In this document: piece after piece, positions 35,889 through 52,091 of the stretch | How the letters are laid out: every line of letters begins with the position of its first letter | Position numbering within the stretch: position 1 is the first letter of the stretch | Source: an uncultured delta proteobacterium | GTDB taxonomy: Bacteria; Desulfobacterota; Binatia; UBA9968 | Length of the DNA: 64,000 nt | Direction of reading: 5' to 3' | Assembly: GCA_963745835.1 (NCBI GenBank) | Contig: CAVUZH010000014.1 | Location: 160,001 to 224,000, forward strand | Notes under the pieces: generated by a model | Told to the model about the DNA's origin: nothing | The model's input: only the letters and a program-made list of their open reading frames with translations | Database searches by the model: none | Made by a program: the position numbers and the translations under genes

Positions 35889-35977
35889 TGGCGGAGGGGG
35901 CGAGATTCGAACTCGCGGTGCACTAAGTGCACGCCGGTTTTCAAGACCGGTGGTTTCAACCGCTCACCCACCCCTCC
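35889..35977 (-). tRNA. tRNA-Ser (anticodon TGA)
   Basis: GGAGGGG/CCCCTCC acceptor stem, CCGGT-CTTGAAA-ACCGG anticodon arm, long variable arm, GTTCGAATC T-loop, encoded CCA. Confidence 0.97.
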
Positions 35978-35986
35978 GATAAGTAA

Positions 35987-35999
35987 AATCAACTACTTA
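35987..35999 (+). promoter_or_regulatory. IHF binding site next to att
   Basis: AATCAACTACTTA matches WATCAANNNNTTR exactly, 9 bp from the att repeat. Confidence 0.7.
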
Positions 36000-37155
36000 G
36001 GTTAGCTGCGGATTTGTCGGCAGGATTCGTTTGAACACTATTGGAACAAATTCCGAACGCTCTTGCAACGTCTCCGGGCTTTAGATTCACATATCGCTGA
36101 TGCATGGCGACACTGTTATGGCCCGCCGCTTTCATCGCGATATCGACGTGAACGCCCTGCCGCGACCATTCCGTCTTTGCGCTGTGCCGGTAGTCATGGA
36201 AACGAAAATTCTCCACTTTGGCTCGCTTGCGCGCGACTCTCACGGCCTGGGTGATCATTTCCTTGGTTATTGCTCGGCCGTCATCTCTGGTGAACACAAG
36301 TCCGTTCACGTTGGCAACGATATTTTCCCCCCGTTTCTCCCGCTCGATCTCATCGAGAATTTCAAGAACCCTGTCGGTTAATGGCGCGCGCTGCTCGACG
36401 CCCGTTTTGACTCTACCGCCAGCGGGTACGATCTCCCGCCGCTGTTTGTCTATCATGTTCTTGGTCAACCGAATGATATCGACTTCCGATAAGCACGTTT
36501 CCCGCGCCACTATAGCAATGCGCCTAAGCCACGCAGGATAAGCGTCGAGCATCGCCGTTTCTTCATTGGCGTCTAGGATCCGGTCGCGCTGCGATCGCTG
36601 TATCAAACCAGCGAACGACGGCGCCGCAGCCTCGATTTCGTTCTCCCTTGCCTTATTAAGCATATGACGAAAGCAAGAAAGCTCATTAGCCACGGTTCCC
36701 GATGAAACTGTCTTGGCAGCCGCTTTGCCATTGCGGATGATATGCTCTTGAAGCCGTTCGGTTCTATACTTGAATAGGTGCTCTCGCTTTATCTCAGTTA
36801 ACAGTATTGAACCGAGCAGACGCTTAATGGTTGCAACTAGATCACACTCGCGGCTGAATGATCGCTTGGTTTTGATTTCCTCAAGCTTGAGATAGCATTC
36901 GCCCCACTTGGCAACCGTCATTCCCTCTTCCGGCTTGTTTTTCTCCGCGTCAAAATCCTTTTCGATCGCGTTTTCGCCCTTGAGCCGATCGAGCTTCCTT
37001 CTGGCTATCTTGAGATTGCCGCCGAGGGCAAATTTTCTACGCTTACCACTCCAGTCTGTGAAAATCCCATAGTAGCGCGTTGACCATTCGCCAGAGCTCA
37101 GATGGTATCTGCATGAATAGAAGTGCTCGTTAATCTTCTCGAGTATCTGTTTCAT
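35989..37155 (-). CDS. Tyrosine recombinase/integrase
   Basis: FRFHDYRH, AGH and RY catalytic motifs; GAGGAG RBS; abuts the tRNA. Confidence 0.95.
   Translation of the reverse strand: MKQILEKINEHFYSCRYHLSSGEWSTRYYGIFTDWSGKRRKFALGGNLKIARRKLDRLKGENAIEKDFDAEKNKPEEGMTVAKWGECYLKLEEIKTKRSFSRECDLVATIKRLLGSILLTEIKREHLFKYRTERLQEHIIRNGKAAAKTVSSGTVANELSCFRHMLNKARENEIEAAAPSFAGLIQRSQRDRILDANEETAMLDAYPAWLRRIAIVARETCLSEVDIIRLTKNMIDKQRREIVPAGGRVKTGVEQRAPLTDRVLEILDEIEREKRGENIVANVNGLVFTRDDGRAITKEMITQAVRVARKRAKVENFRFHDYRHSAKTEWSRQGVHVDIAMKAAGHNSVAMHQRYVNLKPGDVARAFGICSNSVQTNPADKSAANLSS
36025..36054 (+). repeat. Putative integrase arm-type sites (left end)
   Basis: ATTCGTTTGAACACTATTGGAACAAATTCC, nearly identical to 51890-51919. 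Confidence 0.75.
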
Positions 37156-37272
37156 TGTTATCTCCTCAGCGATAGAAGTTGATCCGCTACCCATTTGAAA
37201 TTTCGTGGTGCTCTACTTCTCCCTTGCTCCGATCCTTTTGCTCCAATGTTTTACTATCGCTGTATGGCACCG

Positions 37273-37497
37273 TCAAGCGGGACTACGTTTCTTTCCGCTA
37301 TATTGACGCGCTGCATCAACCCGATAACCTTTGAGATCTTTCGCCGAGATCAAAAGAACCTTATCTTTAACAAGTCGGGTGCGCTCTCCCCAACTGGCTG
37401 CAAGACGACCTTTCTTGATCGCTTCGTGAATTGCGCCCCGAGTAACTCCCAGCTTCTTTGCCGCTTCAGTTATCGTGTAGCTTTTCTTTGTAATCAT
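37273..37497 (-). CDS. Excisionase-like HTH DNA-binding protein
   Basis: YTITEAAKKLGVTRGAIHEAIKKGRLAA; directly upstream of the integrase. Confidence 0.85.
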   Translation of the reverse strand: MITKKSYTITEAAKKLGVTRGAIHEAIKKGRLAASWGERTRLVKDKVLLISAKDLKGYRVDAARQYSGKKRSPA

Positions 37498-37514
37498 CTT
37501 TTGAGGGTGTTTAC

Positions 37515-38443
37515 TTAGTCATTCATCTTAGCTTCATCGGGAAGGGTTGCTCGGATGCTAATCTTTAATGCTTCTGCGCCTGCTTTGGTGTTTGTCGAGT
37601 TCCAAAGTATCGTGTGCATGTGATTAGTATCGAAGTGTGTTCCGTGTCGGTGGAAGAAAGACTCTTCACAAGTATAGAAGACCGGCTTTCCTAAGCCTTC
37701 CGCGAAACCCGCCTCCCAATAAGCGCCTCGGTTGTCTTGTGTCAAATCAACGACAAGAAAACGGCTTGTCCTAATTTCGACTCTAAGGCGATTATCGATT
37801 GAGCCTGCGCTAGGAGATTCGTCTAACCGGTAAAGCAAGAAGGCAGTTTTCCCGACTTCGGTTTTAAACGCTGCGAATGCAGCGTCGACTTGAGTGTTGC
37901 CGAACGGCATGGCCATAAAAGCCTTCTTACTTTCAGAGCGTCCCCGCTTTAGTTCCCAATAGCGATCCCACCCTTTGAGCTTCAAGACTAATTTCGCGCC
38001 CTCTGTATCAAGGAAACCCTCTTGGTCCAAATTCCTGACCAAATCTATGAGCGCACTAGATTGATACGCGCCTATTACCGGAAACAGTTTGGAAGCCTCA
38101 CAAGGTACGGGCATGCTAGGCGCTGAGTTGTCTCGGTCCAAATCAAAAGGTTATCGGCCTGCTCTCTGGCAGTTGGAATATCCCGCTCCTCAACAACTTG
38201 TTTGACTAATTTCGATGGTACTATGGGCTGATCGGCTCTCTGCATTTTGCGGATCGCGTGCATTAAAACAGGACGAACTTTTGGCGCTTTTTGAATCGCC
38301 TCAGTTATTTCGGAGTCCGCCGATTCTTCAAGGAAAAATTCTCCGCATGAGGGACACCGAACATCCAATCTCGTATTCAATGGACCTACGAAAGAAACGC
38401 GAGCATCGGTTCTTTCACAAGCAGGACAGTTTCTTGTGGTCAT
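37515..38443 (-). pseudogene. Zn-ribbon plus nucleoside 2-deoxyribosyltransferase(NDT)-like protein, split by a 1-nt indel near 38135
   Basis: N-terminal CPAC...CPSC; C-terminal AFMAMPF...VVDLT..NRGAYWEAGFAEGLGKPV...HFD. Confidence 0.75.
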
Positions 38444-38542
38444 GCGCGTTGGTATCACCCTTTCGCGGCAAGTTTCAATTTAAAAATCGTCGGTTCCTGC
38501 CTTGCTTCCGTTCACCTGTTGATATAAATCGTCGCGTCGAAG

Positions 38543-38803
38543 ATGACTATTGGTCTTGCCGTACTGTACGGATGGTGGGTCATCGTCGCCTGCTTCCTTG
38601 GCTGGGTCCTAATCGGCACAATCAAGCGAGAATCATTTCTGGTTAAATACTTCCCGAAATTTTACCGCCGCATCGTTTCGCTGCATCGACTTAAAGATAC
38701 CTTAAAGGTCCTAGCAGGCTTGATACTGCTCGTTGCATTTGCCGCCGCAATAGTTTGGTTATTCGATGTGCAACCGGGTACGTTTGGACAGCGTCACTGG
38801 TAA
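38543..38803 (+). CDS. Small membrane protein (2 TM)
   Basis: 86 aa with two hydrophobic helices and a basic loop. Confidence 0.6.
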   Translation: MTIGLAVLYGWWVIVACFLGWVLIGTIKRESFLVKYFPKFYRRIVSLHRLKDTLKVLAGLILLVAFAAAIVWLFDVQPGTFGQRHW

Positions 38804-38997
38804 ACCCGGTTTTCTTCATTCCTTGCTCAATTTCAACAAAATTTCCCAGCCGCGCGCCTGATCCAGCGGCGCCGGCGCCATTAAAGAGATAATCGCCGTC
38901 CCGGGCAGATAAAAGAGGCGAATGGAGTTCTGGCGGCGCGGCTGGGGCAACCTTCTCTCTTGTTGACAATCTCCAACGTTAAATTCAAAGTGGCTCA

Positions 38998-39358
38998 ATG
39001 TCTCTTAGCAATCTCGATAAACTACTCGGCATGCTTACTATCACAATCAAAGAATTTTCGTTTCCACTGAACTACATACTTCTCGCGGCAGCATTCCTTT
39101 TTTTCTACGGCAATTTTCTACGGAGCTCATTTGGTCGTAAGTGGCTTGGCGCTTTTTTTGGGAGTTATAGCGGCGCAGTCTTGGCGTCAACGGTATCCCC
39201 GGATCTATCTTGACAACTCAACTGCGCCTTGGGGCGATCGACCATTAACACGAGACCGTCCGAACTTGCGTCTGTTGAGATTATTAGGAACATCATTCCT
39301 ATGGATCTTGGTAGCGATTTTGATGTTTTTTGCCTTTGTCCTATATCTAAATCGCTAA
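38998..39358 (+). CDS. Small membrane protein, probably one gene frameshifted at a T8 tract near 39100
   Basis: Removing one T joins ORF 38998 to the frame of ORF 39131 (…AAAFLFSTAIFYGAHLVVSGLALFLG…). Confidence 0.5.
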
Positions 39359-39432
39359 CCTTGGATAGATGCGCCTTCCGGGCGCGTCCCCGTCCCCTAC
39401 TGGTAAAAATTGACTTCGGAAAACGGCAGGTA

Positions 39433-39575
39433 TTGTGCTATTAACGCCGCCCTCGCTGCGCAGCGATACCGTTACGCCCAACCTTTGACTCCCGTCAGAG
39501 GCCGCTGCGCTGGCGAGGCCCAAGGACTCCTACCCTCTGCGAAGCGGTCGGATCGAAAGATTCGGCCCCTTTGCA
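39433..39575 (+). ncRNA. Structured repeat, copy A (candidate ncRNA or 5' leader)
   Basis: TTGTGCTATTAAC, nested stems CCTCGC/GCGAGG and GCGCAGCG/CGCTGCGC, inner hairpin, CT-rich linker, 17-bp GAAA-capped hairpin. Confidence 0.65.
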
Positions 39576-39602
39576 TCTCAGAAGGAATCGTTAAACTCAT
39601 TC

Positions 39603-39716
39603 ATGGGCAAGTTTCGTGCGTTTTTCAGTGAACACTGGAAAGACATAGTTAGCGTCGCGTTGTTAATGCTCGCCCTTTTTCTATGTGGCAAACTTGTTAA
39701 CTGGCTCGTTTTTTAG
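39603..39716 (+). CDS. 37-aa single-TM peptide
   Basis: MGKFRAFFSEHWKDIVSVALLMLALFLCGKLVNWLVF; starts 28 nt after repeat A. Confidence 0.6.
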   Translation: MGKFRAFFSEHWKDIVSVALLMLALFLCGKLVNWLVF

Positions 39717-39763
39717 ATAACAATTTCGAATGACAGCGGCACCACTTGATCAACTCCTACCCG

Positions 39764-39899
39764 TTGTGCTATTAACCGCGCCCTCGCTGCGCAGCGCAAT
39801 CCAACTTTTTTGATAACCCAAAATCAAAGGCACTGCGCCGCGAGCTTTAGGCCCTCTCCTCTGTGAAGGGGTCGGATCGAAAGGTTCGGCCCCTTTGCG
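39764..39899 (+). ncRNA. Structured repeat, copy B (candidate ncRNA or 5' leader)
   Basis: Homologous to copy A with the same fold; substitutions keep pairing and add G-U pairs. Confidence 0.65.
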
Positions 39900-39947
39900 C
39901 CTTGACAGTACAGTTCCTTGTGATAATCAGCTCTCCCATTTTGCACC

Positions 39948-40049
39948 ATGGAGAACGCATCAATGATGGTACTTTTGTTTTACTTTCTCGTTGCACTATT
40001 AACCGCCGTTACAGCTTCTGCGCTCATCGGTTGGTTTCTTACAACTTAG
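39948..40049 (+). CDS. 33-aa single-TM peptide
   Basis: MENASMMVLLFYFLVALLTAVTASALIGWFLTT; follows repeat B. Confidence 0.5.
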   Translation: MENASMMVLLFYFLVALLTAVTASALIGWFLTT

Positions 40050-40220
40050 TCCTCGTTCACTTCAAAAATTGTGATCGAGTATCCTGATGGATAGGTTCTA
40101 TGGCTTCTGGAACTAGAAAAGAAACACGTACTAATCCTCTCCGTTGGCGCTTCGAGTGCTTTTCTCGCCACGAAGCTCAACCTCGCCTGGCCAGTGTGTT
40201 GATACGCCGCCCATAAAAAC

Positions 40221-41127
40221 ATGCCCGCACCTGGTACTGGCATCCTGTCGTTTGGGCTAGTGGCGATCCCGGTCCGCATCCATACCGCGACACATAGCGA
40301 GAACGTCTCTTTTCACCTGCTGCATGATAAATGCGGCTCGCGTGTACGCAATCAGCACTATTGCCCAGTGTGTAACATCGTCGTTGAGCGTGCAGATCTT
40401 GTCCGCGGCTTCCAACACGCCAAAGATCAGTATGTGCCGATCACGGAAGAGGAACTCGAAAGCCTCGAGGCCGAAGCTAACAGGAGTATCGATCTCAAAG
40501 AGTTCATCCCGCTTGATTCAGTCGATCCGGTCTATTTCGAGAACACTCACTATCTCGGCCGCCGACAAAGGCGGAGAGAAGCCGTATCGGCTCTGGCTGA
40601 TGCCATGGCAAAGAGCGGCCGTGTCGCGATTGCCGAGCTCGTAAGCCGCGGCAAAGAGCAGCTCGTCCTGATTCGGCCGTACCGGAAGGGTTTGGTCCTT
40701 CACACGATGTATCTACGCTGATGAGGTGCGGGACTTCAAACAGGTGCCCAAAGGCGAGAACGTGAAGGTTTCGGAAACCGAATTAGAGCTCGGCGTCGGT
40801 CTAATCGACCGGCTTACATCCGAGGAGTTCAAGCCGGAGAATTACAAAGACGAGTATCGCATCCGCGTCCTGGGGATGCTGGACGAAAAGAGCAAAGGTA
40901 AGGATATCGTGCTCGGAAAAGCGCCGGCGCCGAAGCACGGAAAAGTGATCGACATCATGGAAGCTCTAAAGCGCAGCATGGAAAGAGTGCCGGCGAAGAA
41001 GAAAACCCACAAGGGCGGGCCGCTAAGAAGAGAAAGAAGCTATCATAAGATCGTCCACCCACTCCCACGCAACGTCGGAATGGGCGGAAGCCGAGGCGCT
41101 TGGCTGGAGCGAAGTGCGGCTTTTTGA
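40221..41127 (+). pseudogene. ku: Ku (NHEJ end-binding) protein with several indels
   Basis: GILSFGLVAIPV, DPVYFE..YL, YKDEYR and VIDIMEALKRS motifs; frame changes near 40558, 40592 and 40712. Confidence 0.9.
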
Positions 41128-41593
41128 AACTACCAGATTTTAGTGCCATCAAAAGCGACGTCGCCTGTTCTGAAGGTAAGACGGCTTCGTATCTCTCCCC
41201 GGCGCCGCACTATACACCAACAGCAAGTTTCTTTAGACATCCTTGGCATATGCCCATCTATATCGGGTGGCCTCCGATAGGCCGATCCGGCAGATCTAGC
41301 AGAGATCCTAAGTTCCGAGCATCTTTTATCCACCCAGCGCCGCGCTGAACACTTCTACGAACACTGCCGGCCGCTTGTCAATTGGTTGGCGTGCCATGTC
41401 AATATTGACTACCCTTACCCTCAAACATGCGCATATGATGTCCTTGGAAGGAAAATTCATGACATTTAGGTCGGTGTCACTTTTGCGGTTAGCAATGGGC
41501 TATGCGTAAATTGCGGGACTTACTCCTCCCAACGATGAAGATCTATTACTCGTCTTTTCTTGCGTGACTTTATGCCGTAGCTTAAAGAAAAGA

Positions 41594-43246
41594 ATGGATC
41601 AGCAAGAAAAATTTCGGTCTCACACAAAAGAAGACCCCATCTCTGTGGCACTCGAGTCCCGCCACAGGTTCCAGTGGTGGGACTATCCGATTTTCGCAGC
41701 ACTGACTACAGCCCACCTGACGGTATTCGGCTTTGTCCTCTACCAATGGATCAACCAGATCGACAAAACCTACGCCAATTTTATCTTCCCGCTATTGGTG
41801 AGCACCGTCCTCCTGCAGCTTATACTTTGGGAATGGCGGTGGTTAGCCCTTCCGTTTATGCGCGTCCCGCGGCCGATACCTGCAGCCTCCGGTTGGCAGA
41901 TCGCTGTGGCTGTAACATTCGTACCTGGAGCGGAGTCGATCGAGATGCTCGATGAGACAGTCGAAGCACTCGTCGGTATGGATTATCCCCACGACACCTG
42001 GGTGCTCGACGAAGGGGACGACGCAGAAGTCCGCGAGCTCTGTCAAAGACATGGGGCGCGGCATTTCTCGCGCCGGCACATGCTTCAATACCAAACGGAA
42101 AGCGGCCCGTTCAAGTCCCAGACAAAGTACGGCAACTATAATGCGTGGTTAGCGGAGCACGGCTACAGGAGTTATGAACTCGTCGCGGCTTTTGATAGCG
42201 ACCACATTCCGCGCTCTGACTACTTGCAGCAAGTGCTCGGCTATTTCGCCGATGAAAGCATTGCGTATGTCCAGCCGGCACAGGCGTACTACAACCAGCG
42301 CGCAAGCTTCATTGCTGCGGCTGCGGCGGAAGAGACCTATGCCTACTATTCGTCAATCCAGATGGTTAGTTTCGCCGTTGGGTTTCCAATGATAGTTGGA
42401 TGCCATAACACTCACCGAGTCACTGCACTGCAGGAGATAGGCGGGTTCGCGCCGCATGAGGCAGACGATATGGTCATGACGTTGCTTTACAGGGCAAACG
42501 GCTGGCGAGGGGTTTACGTACCACAGATTTTAGCTCGCGGCCTTACACCCGTAGACTGGCCAAATTACTTGAAGCAACAGCGCCGGTGGGCTCGATCTGT
42601 ACTTGACTTCAAGATCCGTATTTTCCCGAGGCACGCCTCCCGGCTGCCGCTGCTTGAGCGCGTTCTCACGTACCTACACGGTCTCTATTATCTACAAGGG
42701 CCGTTTACGGCGTTACAGATATCACTTCTGCTTTTCATGCTGGTGACAAATCTCGTGCCCGACGGACCTGGAATGTTATTCTTGCTTCAGACAGGGGCGA
42801 TCTGGCTCACGGTGCTCATCTGCGATTTCTACCGGCAGCGCTTCTTTCTGGACCCAAGAAGCGAGTTTGGTTGGCATTGGCGCTCAGCATTTGTTGGCTT
42901 CGTGAAGTGGCCGTACTTCATGCTCGCATTTGACGATGCGATCCGTGGAAACTATGGAATTTACCCGATTACCCAGAAGACGCCGGCCTCTAGAAACGCG
43001 ATTGGTTTCGCTATCACTCATGCGGCGGTGCTCGTCTTAGTTGGCACTGCGTGGACCATCGATCTCTTTCGCGGCTCCGCAGAGTTCATACCGCTACACA
43101 TCGCGACCGGTTTCACGGCCATTGCGTCTCTTGCGGCCGTAATCACCTCATTTCGTGATTTTCCGCCACCATATGAGTCAGAGATTTACCAGCGCTGGAA
43201 TCGACGTCAAGAAACAGATCAGCTTCGGGATGCATATCCCGGCTAG
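41594..43246 (+). CDS. Processive GT2 (cellulose synthase-like) glycosyltransferase
   Basis: LDEG, KYGNYN, FDSDH, VQPAQ, ADD and QQRRW motifs, flanked by TM helices; frame intact. Confidence 0.9.
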   Translation: MDQQEKFRSHTKEDPISVALESRHRFQWWDYPIFAALTTAHLTVFGFVLYQWINQIDKTYANFIFPLLVSTVLLQLILWEWRWLALPFMRVPRPIPAASGWQIAVAVTFVPGAESIEMLDETVEALVGMDYPHDTWVLDEGDDAEVRELCQRHGARHFSRRHMLQYQTESGPFKSQTKYGNYNAWLAEHGYRSYELVAAFDSDHIPRSDYLQQVLGYFADESIAYVQPAQAYYNQRASFIAAAAAEETYAYYSSIQMVSFAVGFPMIVGCHNTHRVTALQEIGGFAPHEADDMVMTLLYRANGWRGVYVPQILARGLTPVDWPNYLKQQRRWARSVLDFKIRIFPRHASRLPLLERVLTYLHGLYYLQGPFTALQISLLLFMLVTNLVPDGPGMLFLLQTGAIWLTVLICDFYRQRFFLDPRSEFGWHWRSAFVGFVKWPYFMLAFDDAIRGNYGIYPITQKTPASRNAIGFAITHAAVLVLVGTAWTIDLFRGSAEFIPLHIATGFTAIASLAAVITSFRDFPPPYESEIYQRWNRRQETDQLRDAYPG

Positions 43247-43866: not shown

Positions 43867-44333
43867 CTAAAAATCTCCCGGCGGCTTTCGGCGGCATTTT
43901 GCTACTCGATATTTTTCGAAAGGATCATCATCATTCGGTGAAACTTGTTTGACCTTGCTGCGCGACGCCGGCGAGCAGCCGAACTCTGCCAGGCCTTGCC
44001 GAAACGAATCGAAAGCGGTCTTTGCGATTACTACCTGTGACTTGGCGCATTCGCCACTGCTCTCAGTGCGATGCGTAAACTCGGGTTTCAGCTTGTCGAT
44101 TCCCTACGATATACTGACCACCGTTCGCAGATTGCCGCGAATAGAAACATGTTGAGAGACGTTAGAACGCTGATCTTGACCAGCTGCGCATCCCAGCACT
44201 CACGGCCGTAATCGTCCAGCCATGCCGGCGCTTCTAGTTCATTTGGAGGTTCTGGCTGCGGTTCATCCAGGTTTACCCGATCTTTTCGGAAGGTTCCGCG
44301 GAGAATCTTTGATGCAGTCGGTGTTCGTCTCAT
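43867..44333 (-). pseudogene. P27-family terminase small subunit remnant
   Basis: PTASKILRGT..EP..PAWLD N-terminus; LAEFGCSPASRSKV C-terminal motif in another frame. Confidence 0.82.
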
Positions 44334-44538: not shown

Positions 44539-44670
44539 ATGCTAACTGACTCGATCATAAGGATAGCTATGGTGGTTGGATTTCTATCGGCCATGATTCT
44601 TTGGCTCTATAGTCAAAGGGTTTATCTTCTGCCCCATCTATTGTCGATCAATGCCGTTTTTCTCGAATGA
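44539..44670 (+). CDS. 43-aa single-TM peptide
   Basis: GGAGGTGA RBS; MLTDSIIRIAMVVGFLSAMILWLYSQRVY... Confidence 0.6.
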   Translation: MLTDSIIRIAMVVGFLSAMILWLYSQRVYLLPHLLSINAVFLE

Positions 44671-44912
44671 CACTCACGACACGACGCCTCCAGGTTGCCT
44701 CATCATCGGTCCCGCCGCGCGCCTTGATAAGCTTGTGGTCAACCGTATTCGAGGGTTCCAACCCGCATTTCGTACACAATGGATTCTGCTCCAAGCTCGC
44801 CTCCGGATCTTGCGCCAGGCGCCACCGTAACCGCGAGCCGCCGAGTTCGGTCGCCTCTTTTCAGGATCAATCCAGTTTCGAGGTCGAAGTACTTTGCCGC
44901 ATATGGGCTCTT
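44622..44912 (-). pseudogene. HNH endonuclease (packaging-associated type) remnant, copy 1
   Basis: Read across frames: NSAARGYGGAWRKIR...PLCTKC...VDH...GGTDD..NLEASCRECHSRKT. Confidence 0.85.
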
Positions 44913-45001
44913 CTGTGGCGCCTTTCGTCACCTTGACTAAATACGTGATTTTGATATTAACGGCGCCCGCTTGGGGAAGATCCGGGAGACACATCGCTTG
45001 A

Positions 45002-45151
45002 ATGAAGTCGAATAAATCACCGAAGCGTCGGCGCGACATATACGTTCTTTCCATCCTAATCATCGGCGCGCTACCGCTGACACTCATCGTGGCACTGGCG
45101 GTGTATTTATTCGTCTCATACGTGTTCGAGCTCTTGCTCGCTGCCTTCTGA
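45002..45151 (+). CDS. 49-aa basic-headed TM peptide
   Basis: MKSNKSPKRRRDIYVLSILIIGALPLTLIVALAVYLFVSYVFELLLAAF; upstream TTGACT-16-TATTAA at 44933-44960. Confidence 0.6.
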   Translation: MKSNKSPKRRRDIYVLSILIIGALPLTLIVALAVYLFVSYVFELLLAAF

Positions 45152-45373
45152 CTCGGTGCTAAAACTAACTCTCATCAGCGTTGGCACACTGGTATTCCGT
45201 TCTCCAGATCTCCAAAGAATTGATCCCGTTAGGGGATACCGCTAGGTTTTCCTCATGCGCAGAGCTAAGTTGAAACATTTGCCCGAATTAGATATGGGCT
45301 TGGCAGCAATCATTTTGGATTGTCGTGATCGGGATTTTTTAATCATAGCACTGCTGAGATGCTGCTAAGTAGT

Positions 45374-45667
45374 TCATCTTCGCCCCTATCGGTAATGAAC
45401 TAGCGCTGTCTTTCGGTTGTGACACTCACGATATAGCGCCTGCAGATTGCTTTCGTCATCGGTTCCGCCTTGTGCCTTCGTGAGAATATGATCAACAGTG
45501 TTGCTCGGCGCCTGGTTGCATTTCATGCAGATCCGGATGGTGCTCTAAAACGCAAGCGCGAATCTTCCGCCACGATAGCCGTAACCACGCTGGGCTGAAT
45601 TGCCACGCCTCTTTTCTGGATCAATCCAGCCGCGAGGCTTTAGCGTCTTTGCCGAATAGGGGCTCAT
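45374..45667 (-). pseudogene. HNH endonuclease remnant, copy 2
   Basis: Read across frames: MSPYSAKTLKPRGWIDPEKRRGNSAQRGYG..WRKIR..CMKC..VDH..GGTDDESNLQALYRECHNRKT. Confidence 0.85.
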
Positions 45668-45748
45668 CTATTCCGGCCTTTTCATCGCCTTGACTAAAAA
45701 CCTGTATTTGATACGTACCCCGCGCATTTTTTGCACCGGGAGGTTCAC

Positions 45749-45871
45749 ATGACCAAACTGCGCAATTGGTGGTCGAACTTCGGCGAAGACACCATGCTTG
45801 TTTCAGCAATACTCGGTCTTGTGCTCGGCCTTTATTTTCTCGTTGCATATCTCTTCATCCGGACCATTTGA
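45749..45871 (+). CDS. 40-aa single-TM peptide
   Basis: GGGAGG RBS; MTKLRNWWSNFGEDTMLVSAILGLVLGLYFLVAYLFIRTI; upstream TTGACT at 45690. Confidence 0.65.
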   Translation: MTKLRNWWSNFGEDTMLVSAILGLVLGLYFLVAYLFIRTI

Positions 45872-47726: not shown

Positions 47727-49669
47727 TCAACGAGACTCATTCCAGTCGTTCGCTTTCCCAAGGATCGGATTCTGTTCCCGAAGTATCCGGTTTAAGATTC
47801 TGTTCCTTTCTGTTCCCATTCTGTTCCGAGTTTCTGGGGAACAGAATTTCGTCAGCGTTAGCAAGGGTTTTTCCCGATTTTTTCGATTCTGTTCATGCTT
47901 TTCCGCGTTCTTCTGTTCCCTATAGGGAATAGAAAGAGAAGACGTAGTAACGTGACTATGCGTAACCGTGGTCAGGTCCGCTGCCAGAGAGTAACAAAAA
48001 GGCTTGCCCTTCTTACCGTCGCCTGTACGTTCAAATTTGCCGTCGCGAAAGAGCTGCCTTAGAGCCTTTGATACGATTATGGTCCCCAACGGTAGAGCAT
48101 CCGGGACCGCCTTTTCGACCACGTCGCCGCCTTCCATTTCTACGAACTCAAGAATTTTCGGCGCGGCTTCTTCGATCTCCGCGTCTTCCATCGTGCCCTG
48201 GATTTCGATTCGCCCTGTTGTTTTGTTAAAGCCGATCGCCGTCTCGGAAAAGTTTTCGCCGCCGCGTTGGTCTGATCTGAGAATCCGCCGCTCACTGTTC
48301 GGAAGGCGTTTCAAAAATAAATAAGTGTAGCAGAGCCCGCGAATCGCCGTGCTGCCGATCGCCGCATCAAGATCATCGGCTGATTCTTTTTTTGCGTGAT
48401 GCAGCATCATGATGTGACAATTCCCCTGACGCGCCGCATCGAGTACGGGCTCAATCTTGTTCGTGACTTCCGCGTAGTCGTTCAGATCTTTAAACCTAAG
48501 CAGCTTCTGTAGAGTGTCGATCACAACTAGCTTCACGCCTTTTTGTTTGATGGTGTGCAGTAGCCAATCGATACAATCGCCTGGCGCCGATCCGGCGTGG
48601 AGATAAAGCGGGCCTGATTCTCGTAATCCAAAACTGACAAAAACGTCAGCAATCTCAGAAAGAGAGCCGTTAAGGAAAAGGTAAGCAACCGGACCTTGCT
48701 GGATTGCACGTCCTAAAAATGGTTCACCGCGTACGACGCACATACATCAATCACCAATCGTGAAAGTTTTTCGACCTTCGGGTTCGCTACGACAGCCGAA
48801 CCGCCGCCAACCGGTAAGCAATCCTCAACTACCCAACGCGTAGGAGCCTTAGGCGCCTGAAGGATGTCTTTCGCGGTTAATAATTCAGGCCATAGATTAG
48901 CCTGCCCTTTGAGCTCGACGGTTCTGGTAAATGGCGCCGCTGCTTCTACCACCGCTAAGAGATCCTCTTTGCTGTGCGAGCTGAGATAATCTGAGACGTC
49001 ACCCTTTTGCGGTAGATCCGGCAGAGAAATGAGTTTGACTGATTTCGCCAGGGGTAACAGCGATCGCGCCACCGAAAGGCCATGCTCTCGGCCCGGATCG
49101 TCATTATCCGGAAAGATGACAACGTGCTTGCCTTTAAGAGCTTCGCTGTAGGACTGAGCCCATTTACCAGCACCGCCGATGTTTGTTGTGGCAGCTAGAG
49201 CAAGCCCCGTTAGCTTATCCGCATCCTTCTACCCTTCCGCAATGTAGACAATTTCCGAGTTTAGAATTTCCGGAAGGCGATAAAGTACCCGGCGGGTACC
49301 ATTCATGCCTGGAATAAATCGGCGGCTGACAACATCAAAGCGTTTTTGAAAGACGTTTTTTGACCTAGTCCGGCAAGCTCGATAGAGTGGCTTCTGACCT
49401 TCGTCAAGGTAGACATACCGCGCAGTGACTGGATCATCCTTTGAAGGCCCACGATTCTCATTCCCCGCTAGATCGCGCCATGTCAGATTTGCTGCATCGA
49501 TTATGGTTTTTGTTGCGCAGCCGGCTGACATTTGAGTAGGATCTCCCGCCTTCGACTTCGGATCTGCTTAAGGAGTTTTTTTATCTTCGTTAGAAGGGCA
49601 GCGAACCTTGAAGCTGCGGCCGGATCGCTGTGGATTGTCGAAGCGCGCGATGACTTGGTCCAGCGTCAT
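47727..49669 (-). pseudogene. Primase-helicase (Zn-binding, TOPRIM and RepA/AAA_25-like domains) remnant
   Basis: VRCPS..ED...AGC Zn domain; YIAEG*KDAD (nonsense codon), FPDNDDPG and KGDVSDY; helicase LVVIDT, LHHAKK and GSTAI; degraded Walker A. Confidence 0.88.
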
Positions 49670-52049: not shown

Positions 52050-52091
52050 GGTTTTTAAGACCGATGGTTTCAACCGCTCACCCACCCCTCC
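52050..52091 (-). repeat. att site: displaced 5' half of tRNA-Ser with 2 substitutions
   Basis: GGAGGGGTGGGTGAGCGGTTGAAACCATCGGTCTTAAAAACC versus tRNA ...ACCACCGGTCTTGAAAACC. Confidence 0.93.

Follow-up and report, generated by a model that had tools for sequence, protein, structure and literature searches.

Does a run of tiny membrane peptides alternating with folded RNA elements amount to a new kind of mobile-element system? The question is raised by a locus at positions 38543-40049 of a 64,000-nucleotide (nt) stretch of DNA from an uncultured delta proteobacterium (this whole stretch is referred to below as the window). An earlier note had described the locus as four small hydrophobic open reading frames (ORFs), each separated from the next by a GC-rich folded element. 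Our analysis recovers from it a repeated unit of about 115 nt, forming the first part of two of those elements (A, 39433-39575, and B, 39764-39899), which has the sequence features of a sigma-70-like promoter followed by a hairpin and which precedes genes of three small membrane-protein families (P1, P2 and P3) and a gene for Ku. The leader is undescribed, but in kind it is a 5' leader that is specific to one lineage and reused by duplicated cargo genes. What it adds is a structurally supported leader RNA motif from an uncultured soil lineage, along with two small membrane-protein families without annotation; the gene for one of them, P2, repeatedly lies a few bases before Ku on elements that bear an integrase.

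The repeated unit and its hairpin

The window holds two copies, units A and B, both on the forward strand. Unit A (39410-39528, 95.8 bits with the covariance model R1, which was built from the 13 copies in the genome) consists of a promoter-like segment with a degenerate -35 and an extended -10 (39436-39444), followed by the leader hairpin, whose arms (39450-39465 and 39503-39518) have an inner hairpin between them. Unit B (39741-39855, 86.1 bits with R1) has its -35 at 39746-39751, its -10 at 39770-39775 and its leader hairpin at 39781-39845. The homology that had been noted between the two is confirmed (33 nt at 94% identity plus 46 nt at 89%), as is the lack of homology between the peptides that follow them, which belong to families P3 and P2. 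The fold z-scores are -5.10 for A and -4.30 for B, with 0 of 200 shuffles as good. Behind the unit A hairpin lies a second, very stable hairpin (39538-39575, + strand; fold, repeat and alignment of copies) that is followed by a short T run and is terminator-like. Unit B is followed by a copy of it (39862-39898, + strand; repeat and fold) and then by a second promoter-like stretch (39902-39927), read by eye and unscored by the promoter scan. Besides A and B, only C3:1061k among the 13 genome copies has this second hairpin (3 in all), and it was seen in none of the relatives' copies inspected.

The 13 copies occur in a 7.28-Mb genome of 25 contigs, all with nhmmer E<=3.8e-14, and the next match is at E 0.094. 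R1 also detects the unit in 4 of 7 genus-mates; no match was found in 29 genomes of other genera of the family, 24 of the order and 150 further genomes of the class. The leader-negative genus-mates (G002, G003 and G007) are each 95-96% complete. Among the genomes searched, the unit is genus-restricted. An Rfam cmscan, one of the checks that had been proposed, gave no match at E<=1 for positions 37000-42000 (both strands, 4227 families), and BLAST of 39405-39905 against phage and plasmid collections gave none either.

A census across the genomes of the class sample and four metagenome loci found through the P2 protein comprised 36 copies (13 from this genome, 18 from genus-mates and 5 from metagenome loci). 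A P ORF on the same strand starts within 135 nt downstream in 26 of the 36 and within 700 nt in 28. This bears out the proposal that a conserved non-coding unit is paired with differing small membrane-protein genes, here P1, P2 or P3. The covariance-model check that had been suggested likewise places leader hits upstream of small membrane-protein genes, with class genomes as the space searched and metagenome loci reached through P2. As for the opposing possibility of a genome-wide repetitive extragenic palindrome (REP) or miniature inverted-repeat transposable element (MITE) with no link to peptides, the unit is indeed genome-wide, but it is tied to peptide genes and is no random REP or MITE.

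Mean column identity over the 27 full-length distinct copies is 0.88 in the -35 (TTGAT), 0.93 in the extended -10, 0.95 in the 5' arm and 0.92 in the 3' arm, but 0.68 in the spacer, 0.68 in the internal loop and 0.67 in the tail. That promoter hexamers and stems are conserved while spacer and loop are variable fits selection on the former, and not a uniformly young repeat. The conserved block spans from the -35 to just past the 3' arm, with the inverted repeat internal and the promoter outside it, and its association is with the ORF that follows it and not with the one before. Searched by itself, the promoter part is found at the 13 copies and at one extra place that lacks a hairpin (L064:17039-17072; G000 C3:1168038-1168071), where a non-membrane ORF of 71 amino acids (aa) follows.

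The hairpin comprises 21 pairs: a 15-base-pair outer stem, with a 1-nt bulge on the 3' arm, and a 6-base-pair inner hairpin. The internal loop on the 5' side is C/A-rich and roughly 15-35 nt long, its length varying by more than 15 nt among copies. Tandem duplication of a short C/A-rich loop motif is seen in C16:479k, C3:1157k, L043 and L046, and accounts for much of the length variation. Paired cells amount to 96.8%, compared with 35-47% when the partners are slid, and changes on both sides occur at five pairs, values reached by 0 of 500 shuffles; however, kinship of the copies inflates these pairing statistics and the shuffle control overstates their significance, and most stems never vary. 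In one diverged copy (L051), several stem positions are rewritten on both arms with the pairing kept. G-U or U-G cells number 54, against 8 A-C or C-A cells, and this excess argues for a structure on the sense-strand RNA (the same strand as the downstream ORFs) and not a DNA palindrome. The median folding z over the 27 copies is -3.33 (mononucleotide shuffles).

In A and B the -10 ends 6-7 nt before the first stem pair, so the hairpin would lie at the very 5' end of the RNA if transcription begins at the predicted start. In 20 modelled transcripts, whose 5' end was guessed, the segment around the Shine-Dalgarno (SD) sequence is unpaired with a mean probability of 0.28-0.76 and is not consistently masked by the leader. 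Conservation of the stem sequence beyond what pairing requires hints at recognition by a protein or nuclease.

Small membrane proteins and their coupling to Ku

The three families were modelled as hidden Markov models (HMMs) from ORFs recurring downstream of unit copies, and linkage was called at HMM E<=0.01. P2 proteins are 28-90 aa long and share a conserved N-terminal hydrophobic helix. The Ku-linked form (72-89 aa) ends in a basic tail with a WRFECFSRH motif, and P2 away from Ku has other tails. Differences at the three codon positions of P2 number 2079/1497/3079 over 19 sequences, with a ratio of nonsynonymous to synonymous substitution (dN/dS) of about 0.30, a pattern that indicates a protein under purifying selection. 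AlphaFold2 predicts a helix at residues 1-30 with a per-residue confidence (pLDDT) above 90; the tail is of low confidence. Database homologues of one genus-mate's 73-aa P2 number 32, with lengths of 48-102 aa.

In P3 proteins (about 37-45 aa), a helix follows a charged N-terminal part that contains a conserved acidic pair; codon-position differences are 191/110/214 (5 sequences). A P3 profile search of 1.84 billion representatives returned 58 at E<=1e-3, including 9 at E<=1e-10. The family is represented between units A and B by ORF3 (39603-39716, + strand), a 37-aa protein with a hydrophobic segment at residues 13-37 (P3 HMM E 1.7e-22). The coding signal of P1 (about 30 aa) is weak, with differences of 96/75/98 in 5 sequences. 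The small ORFs fall into no family of Pfam, PHROGs, PADLOC or NCBIfam. With the Rfam result, this agrees with the earlier note, which could assign the locus to no named family. Best scores in ESM Atlas look-ups (0.86 for P3, 0.83 for P2) are below the meaningful level, and the P2 alignment had no match in viral contigs.

Genes of these families also form P1-P2(-P3) operons. In L031 and L043, leader-P1-P2 is followed by a P3-like ORF or by an in-frame P3-like extension of P2. At a locus in a relative (L053), a deletion junction joins the 5' arm of the leader directly into P3. Operon structure and junction together imply that variable cargo can arise by deletion and duplication, without an independently mobile RNA element. 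The variable cargo that had been remarked on is thus explicable by deletions within a leader-P1-P2-P3 operon. Directly upstream of one leader copy is a gene for a 561-aa TIR-domain protein (L062:4033-5715; G000 C16:251032-252714) with PADLOC matches to SAVED-TIR and ThsB-like models.

What is most interesting in these results is that a small membrane protein is repeatedly and tightly coupled to Ku on islands that bear an integrase. Ku is found within 1.4 kb downstream of 11 unit copies, which correspond to 8 loci. The layout in these 8 loci is leader-(P3-leader-)P2-Ku, and they include another species with the double leader (L053/L072) and a metagenome contig (L090). In the recurrent arrangement, Ku starts 4-23 nt after P2. 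All four metagenome loci found through P2 have the leader upstream, and in all three of those with the basic tail Ku follows P2 by 7-23 nt. In the leader-lacking genus-mates G002, G003 and G007, no match to P2 was identified. The gene arrangement suggests that P2 may have a role connected with Ku on the mobile element. A physical or regulatory coupling would make P2 a new accessory factor in bacterial end joining on mobile elements; if there is no such link, the locus is a lineage-specific expression cassette reused by duplicated cargo genes.

The window copy of P2 (39948-40216, + strand; P2 HMM E 1.6e-15) is disrupted. Intact homologues of 84-89 aa align at their N-terminus to ORF4 (39948/39963-40049) and at their C-terminus to the ORF at 40100-40216, which encodes the basic tail. 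The middle reads in a second frame, with a frameshift near 40040 and an in-frame TGA near 40085. ORF4, which had been listed as a peptide gene, does exist as an ORF of 33 aa, but it is only the N-terminal piece of the longer P2 gene. Four nt after the P2 stop begins Ku (40221-41127, + strand), itself split between two frames (40221-40721 and 40726-41127). It is 89% identical in DNA to an intact Ku paralogue at C3:1268723-1269547 (G000), which is matched by the models PF02735 (E 1.9e-48) and TIGR02772 (E 3.4e-83; 279 bits, cutoff 150).

Two remnants of Ku are present as well: its 5' part at C3:1061605-1061772, immediately before a leader copy, and its 3' end at C14:426162-426253, after the orphan leader considered below. 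Ku is also split in two genus-mates. Another end-joining-related remnant near a module is a fragment of an ATP-dependent DNA ligase domain (L064:3777-4148, minus strand; G000 C3), about 2.2 kb downstream of the C3:1157k leader-P2 module and on the same strand as it. Genes for NfeD, ABC_sub_bind and integrase are split as well, with adjacent ORFs matching consecutive parts of one family (L061, L063, L065, L070, L071). These split genes suggest indel errors in the assemblies or widespread decay, and some of the tiny ORFs may therefore be assembly artefacts or decay products. The locus illustrates how a single gene can, through such lesions or through decay, take on the appearance of a tiny-peptide array.

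How the leader may act

We are much more confident of the anatomy of the unit than of its mechanism. Taken whole, the reading that we favour, and hold to be somewhat probable, is that of a cis-acting 5'-terminal leader hairpin common to small-membrane-protein/Ku operons. The promoter of the unit would give rise to a transcript starting at about the base of the stem. The hairpin would then act in cis as a self-contained 5'-terminal stem-loop that protects transcripts from 5'-end-dependent decay, and/or it would be a common handle, for RNase III or an RNA-binding regulator, through which a small regulon is co-regulated. Masking of the ribosome-binding site (RBS) would not be its mode of action.

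Stem-loops that stabilise messages from the 5' end include the hairpin in the 5' untranslated region (UTR) of ompA in E. coli and the ermC and aprE leaders in Bacillus. Like them, the leader places a stable hairpin at or within a few nt of the predicted 5' end and directly upstream of the SD, leaving the RBS free. It differs in that one promoter and hairpin is reused 13 times, before three unrelated small-protein families and Ku, and in that the stems are conserved in sequence across species; a stabilising role here would follow by analogy of geometry. Literature searches (preprint supplements lay outside their scope) returned no description of the leader, of the P families or of a small protein coupled to Ku.

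RNA data offer a weak hint in addition. Five RNA runs contain 5-9% of the sampled words of 38400-40400. Near-identical contigs from four RNA libraries (four studies) cover, within that interval, 39246-39854 alone; two further RNA-library contigs belong to other leader copies. The contigs are compatible with preferential transcription of the A-P3-B stretch; the parts left uncovered carry no information.

Several observations weigh against a cis-acting leader of this kind, in addition to the kinship of the copies already described. The RNA contigs have a depth of 2-3.3 and show neither strand nor ends; some include the promoter region and upstream sequence, and one starts upstream of the -35 of unit A, so that DNA carry-over or read-through could account for them. 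That -35 is degenerate, and a -10 ending in A causes the promoter scan to miss the promoter of the unit. Stem sequence is conserved, with few true compensatory changes (6 cells in 5 pairs), most of which come from one or two diverged copies. No HMM-detected P gene lies downstream of 8 of the 36 copies; by eye, some of these 8 have degenerate P-like ORFs, and one has a different ORF downstream, of 78 aa, whose C-terminus is hydrophobic. Between leader and ORF, three copies (A, B and C3:1061k) have a further strong hairpin and another promoter-like stretch; in the two of these that lie in the window, the leader may thus be a short RNA of its own, as opposed to a 5' UTR. Finally, we infer the stabilising function from geometry alone.

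The rival that survives best, although we consider it unlikely, is that the loci are type I toxin-antitoxin-like or abortive-infection modules. P1-P3 would be membrane-damaging toxins restrained by an antisense or trans-acting RNA, possibly the stand-alone A and B copies, and would serve island stabilisation or phage exclusion. Type I systems such as hok/sok, tisB/istR-1, ibs/sib and aapA/isoA resemble the present loci in their short, single-helix hydrophobic proteins, multiple copies, frequent residence on mobile elements and structured 5' UTRs. The small proteins here likewise have a single hydrophobic helix and are multi-copy, share a structured 5' leader, include many decayed copies, and at four loci, one of which is in the window, lie on or next to elements that carry an integrase. 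A and B, moreover, resemble short RNA genes in their own right, each with a terminator-like hairpin. Toxins of this kind are usually below 60 aa, a size that fits P3 (37-45 aa) and P1 (about 30 aa) but not intact Ku-linked P2, with its 72-89 aa, conserved and predicted cytoplasmic basic tail, and Ku 4-23 nt behind it. Also contrary to expectation are the P1-P2(-P3) operons and a P2 dN/dS of about 0.3, which is ordinary purifying selection. No antitoxin RNA was found, though the scans were weak: no recurrent antisense promoter was identified at the window and three paralogous loci by scans that miss even the unit's own promoter, and a weak test for a second locus complementary to the P2 translation-start region found none beyond the P2 copies. 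The SD is unmasked, without consistent sequestration in the 20 modelled transcripts, and no toxin match was obtained in PADLOC or Pfam. The addiction, exclusion or abortive-infection role that had been proposed finds no positive evidence within the reach of these weak antisense scans and the modelled transcripts.

A more elaborate alternative, which we rate as slightly less likely still, treats the hairpin as the regulatory switch of a new mobile-element system. The switch would be read by a nuclease or binding protein, or decoyed by the A and B copies, and would release membrane-active peptides and Ku upon satellite or helper-phage activity. The basic tail of P2 might hold Ku at the membrane or modulate it, and Ku might protect linear satellite DNA or spoil the cos ends of a competitor phage. 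In mycobacteria, end joining that mis-repairs cos sites is reported to act against phage (PMC12848934).

It is doubtful, more so than either of these, that the units (A, B and the orphan copy at the least) are independent small RNA (sRNA) genes acting in trans, for instance by titrating a protein that binds the P/Ku leaders. Such genes would be expected to show what A, B and C3:1061k have behind the leader, namely a very stable hairpin, a short U run and then another promoter-like stretch, and the sequence conservation of the stems would suit protein recognition. However, the U run is three residues only, the second hairpin is confined to 3 of the 13 genome copies and is absent from the relatives' copies inspected, and 26 of the 36 copies run into an SD and ORF within 135 nt without a terminator. 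The orphan, C14:425.5k, has no downstream gene and faces a convergent DUF1232 gene, as an sRNA gene might, but it is about 500 nt from a 3' remnant of Ku and therefore looks like a deletion product.

Still further from likely is a MITE- or Correia-like repeat that spreads on its own and incidentally supplies promoter and hairpin to its neighbours. Correia elements (CREE) occur in high copy number beside unrelated genes. They are MITE-like, with terminal inverted repeats, whereas the present unit has its inverted repeat inside, with the conserved promoter beyond it and with ends that show no inverted-repeat relation, and only 13 copies occur in 7.3 Mb. The association of the unit with P1, P2 and P3 is fixed, with 28 of the 36 copies preceding the same three gene families, and across genus-mates leader and P2 are jointly present or jointly missing. 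Conserved hexamers and stems beside variable spacer and loop also speak against this explanation. The unit does resemble CREE in being dispersed, confined to one genus, and equipped with an inverted repeat and a promoter; CREE, repeats of about 100 nt in Neisseria, can create promoters, and the hairpin into which they are transcribed can be bound or cleaved by RNase III, which changes how the neighbouring gene is expressed (PMC2649163).

Least probable of all is a DNA operator, with the arms as two repressor half-sites overlapping the transcription start and no RNA structure: repressors often bind at about +1, where these sequence-conserved arms (0.95 and 0.92) lie, but arm spacing varies by about 15 nt or more among copies, the inner hairpin is conserved too, and the 54 G-U/U-G against 8 A-C/C-A cells are as expected for a one-strand RNA.

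The island and the surrounding genes

The locus forms the cargo end of an island of about 16.1 kb, adjoining the integrase end. The integration target is a tRNA-Ser gene (anticodon tga, 35889-35977, minus strand; ARAGORN), whose 5' half supplies the left 42-nt direct repeat (35936-35977) that bounds the island. BLAST of the tRNA region against the window and genome identified the right copy at 52050-52091, with 95% identity. Next to the tRNA is a tyrosine integrase (35989-37194, minus strand; PF00589 E 1.1e-18, phrog_1 E 1.9e-38), followed by a small excisionase-like helix-turn-helix protein of the HTH_17 family (37273-37497, minus strand; PF12728 E 9.1e-7, phrog_2907 excisionase E 5.5e-4). 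Further along are genes for a terminase small subunit-like (TerS-like) protein (44088-44333, minus strand; phrog_83 E 1e-11) and an AAA_25 primase/helicase-like replication protein (47727-48743, minus strand; PF13481 E 1.1e-12, phrog_239 E 1.4e-10). No structural PHROG (capsid or tail) was found among the 24 ORFs scanned. At the domain level this gene set resembles a phage satellite, and the satellite or integrative setting that had been proposed is supported by the tRNA-Ser repeat, integrase, excisionase-like, primase/helicase and TerS-like genes. Satellites of the phage-inducible chromosomal island (PICI) type are comparable in all of these features, including a tRNA site, the approximate size of 16 kb and the missing capsid and tail matches; unlike them, this island carries Ku and small membrane-protein genes as cargo and is known from its genes alone, in an uncultured host.

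Tyrosine integrases or fragments of them also lie shortly upstream, on the opposite strand, at three other unit-bearing loci of the genome. An integron gene cassette with its attC site was considered as an identity for the unit and rejected. The window integrase has no match to the integron-integrase model (its best NCBIfam match is 33 bits against a cutoff of 220), and two other unit-adjacent integrases score 44-56 bits against the TIGR02249 cutoff of 265. An attC site lies at the 3' end of its cassette and, when folded, has a pair of core sites (RYYYAAC ... GTTRRRY) at its base. The hairpin lacks such core sites, its stem base reading CCCTCGC/GCGAGG in the alignments.

What had looked like a regular array of four peptides alternating with three elements is a juxtaposition, because ORF2 is two frames, ORF4 is a fragment of P2, and element 1 is unrelated to A and B. 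ORF1 (38543-38803, + strand, 86 aa), ORF3 and ORF4 are indeed small ORFs with hydrophobic segments, as called by a Kyte-Doolittle window, but the fourth member, "ORF2" (38998-39358, + strand), is an orphan region of overlapping ORFs in different frames (38998-39213 and 39131-39358), the first of which has no hydrophobic segment by the same measure. ORF1, outside the repeated unit, has two such segments (residues 1-28 and 50-80). It is a near-orphan, with 2 homologues at 85-93% identity among 5.8 billion proteins searched, no paralogue in the genome and no Pfam, PHROG or PADLOC match.

Similarly, A and B are clearly folded, but element 1 (38845-38946), an isolated GC-rich inverted repeat, does not fold clearly above chance (z -1.82 on the + strand, 10 of 200 shuffles as good; z -2.33 on the - strand, 4 of 200), and in the genome it matches only itself. 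The second ORF2 frame (ORF2b) has a single homologue, database protein P0093 of a very close relative, which fuses the N-terminus of an ORF beginning at 38215 straight to the ORF2b part. This junction implies that about 38293-39150, which holds ORF1, element 1 and the first ORF2 frame, is an insertion or deletion between strains. ORF1, "ORF2" and element 1 are strain-specific filler unrelated to the leader/P system.

Adjoining the excisionase-like gene is an overlapping gene pair (37515-38458, minus strand) that encodes a 208-aa protein and a 127-aa zinc-ribbon-like protein and may be satellite cargo. The 208-aa protein matches phrog_16139 (E 1.3e-19) and, weakly and below cutoff, a nucleoside 2-deoxyribosyltransferase-like family (E 4.4e-4); neither protein has a PADLOC match.

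Elsewhere in the island, the region 44648-45871 contains two paralogous segments of about 290 nt (44668-44956 and 45420-45713, 68% identity), both of which encode, as judged by eye only, HNH-endonuclease-like fragments on the minus strand. Each segment is followed by a convergent P3-like small membrane ORF that lacks a leader. The first (45002-45151, + strand) encodes 49 aa with a hydrophobic segment at residues 11-49 and was picked by eye from the ORF list, unscored by the HMM. The second (45749-45871, + strand; 40 aa) is a P3 paralogue: its P3 HMM score is weak (E 0.22), but it can be aligned to the family and lies near its database members.

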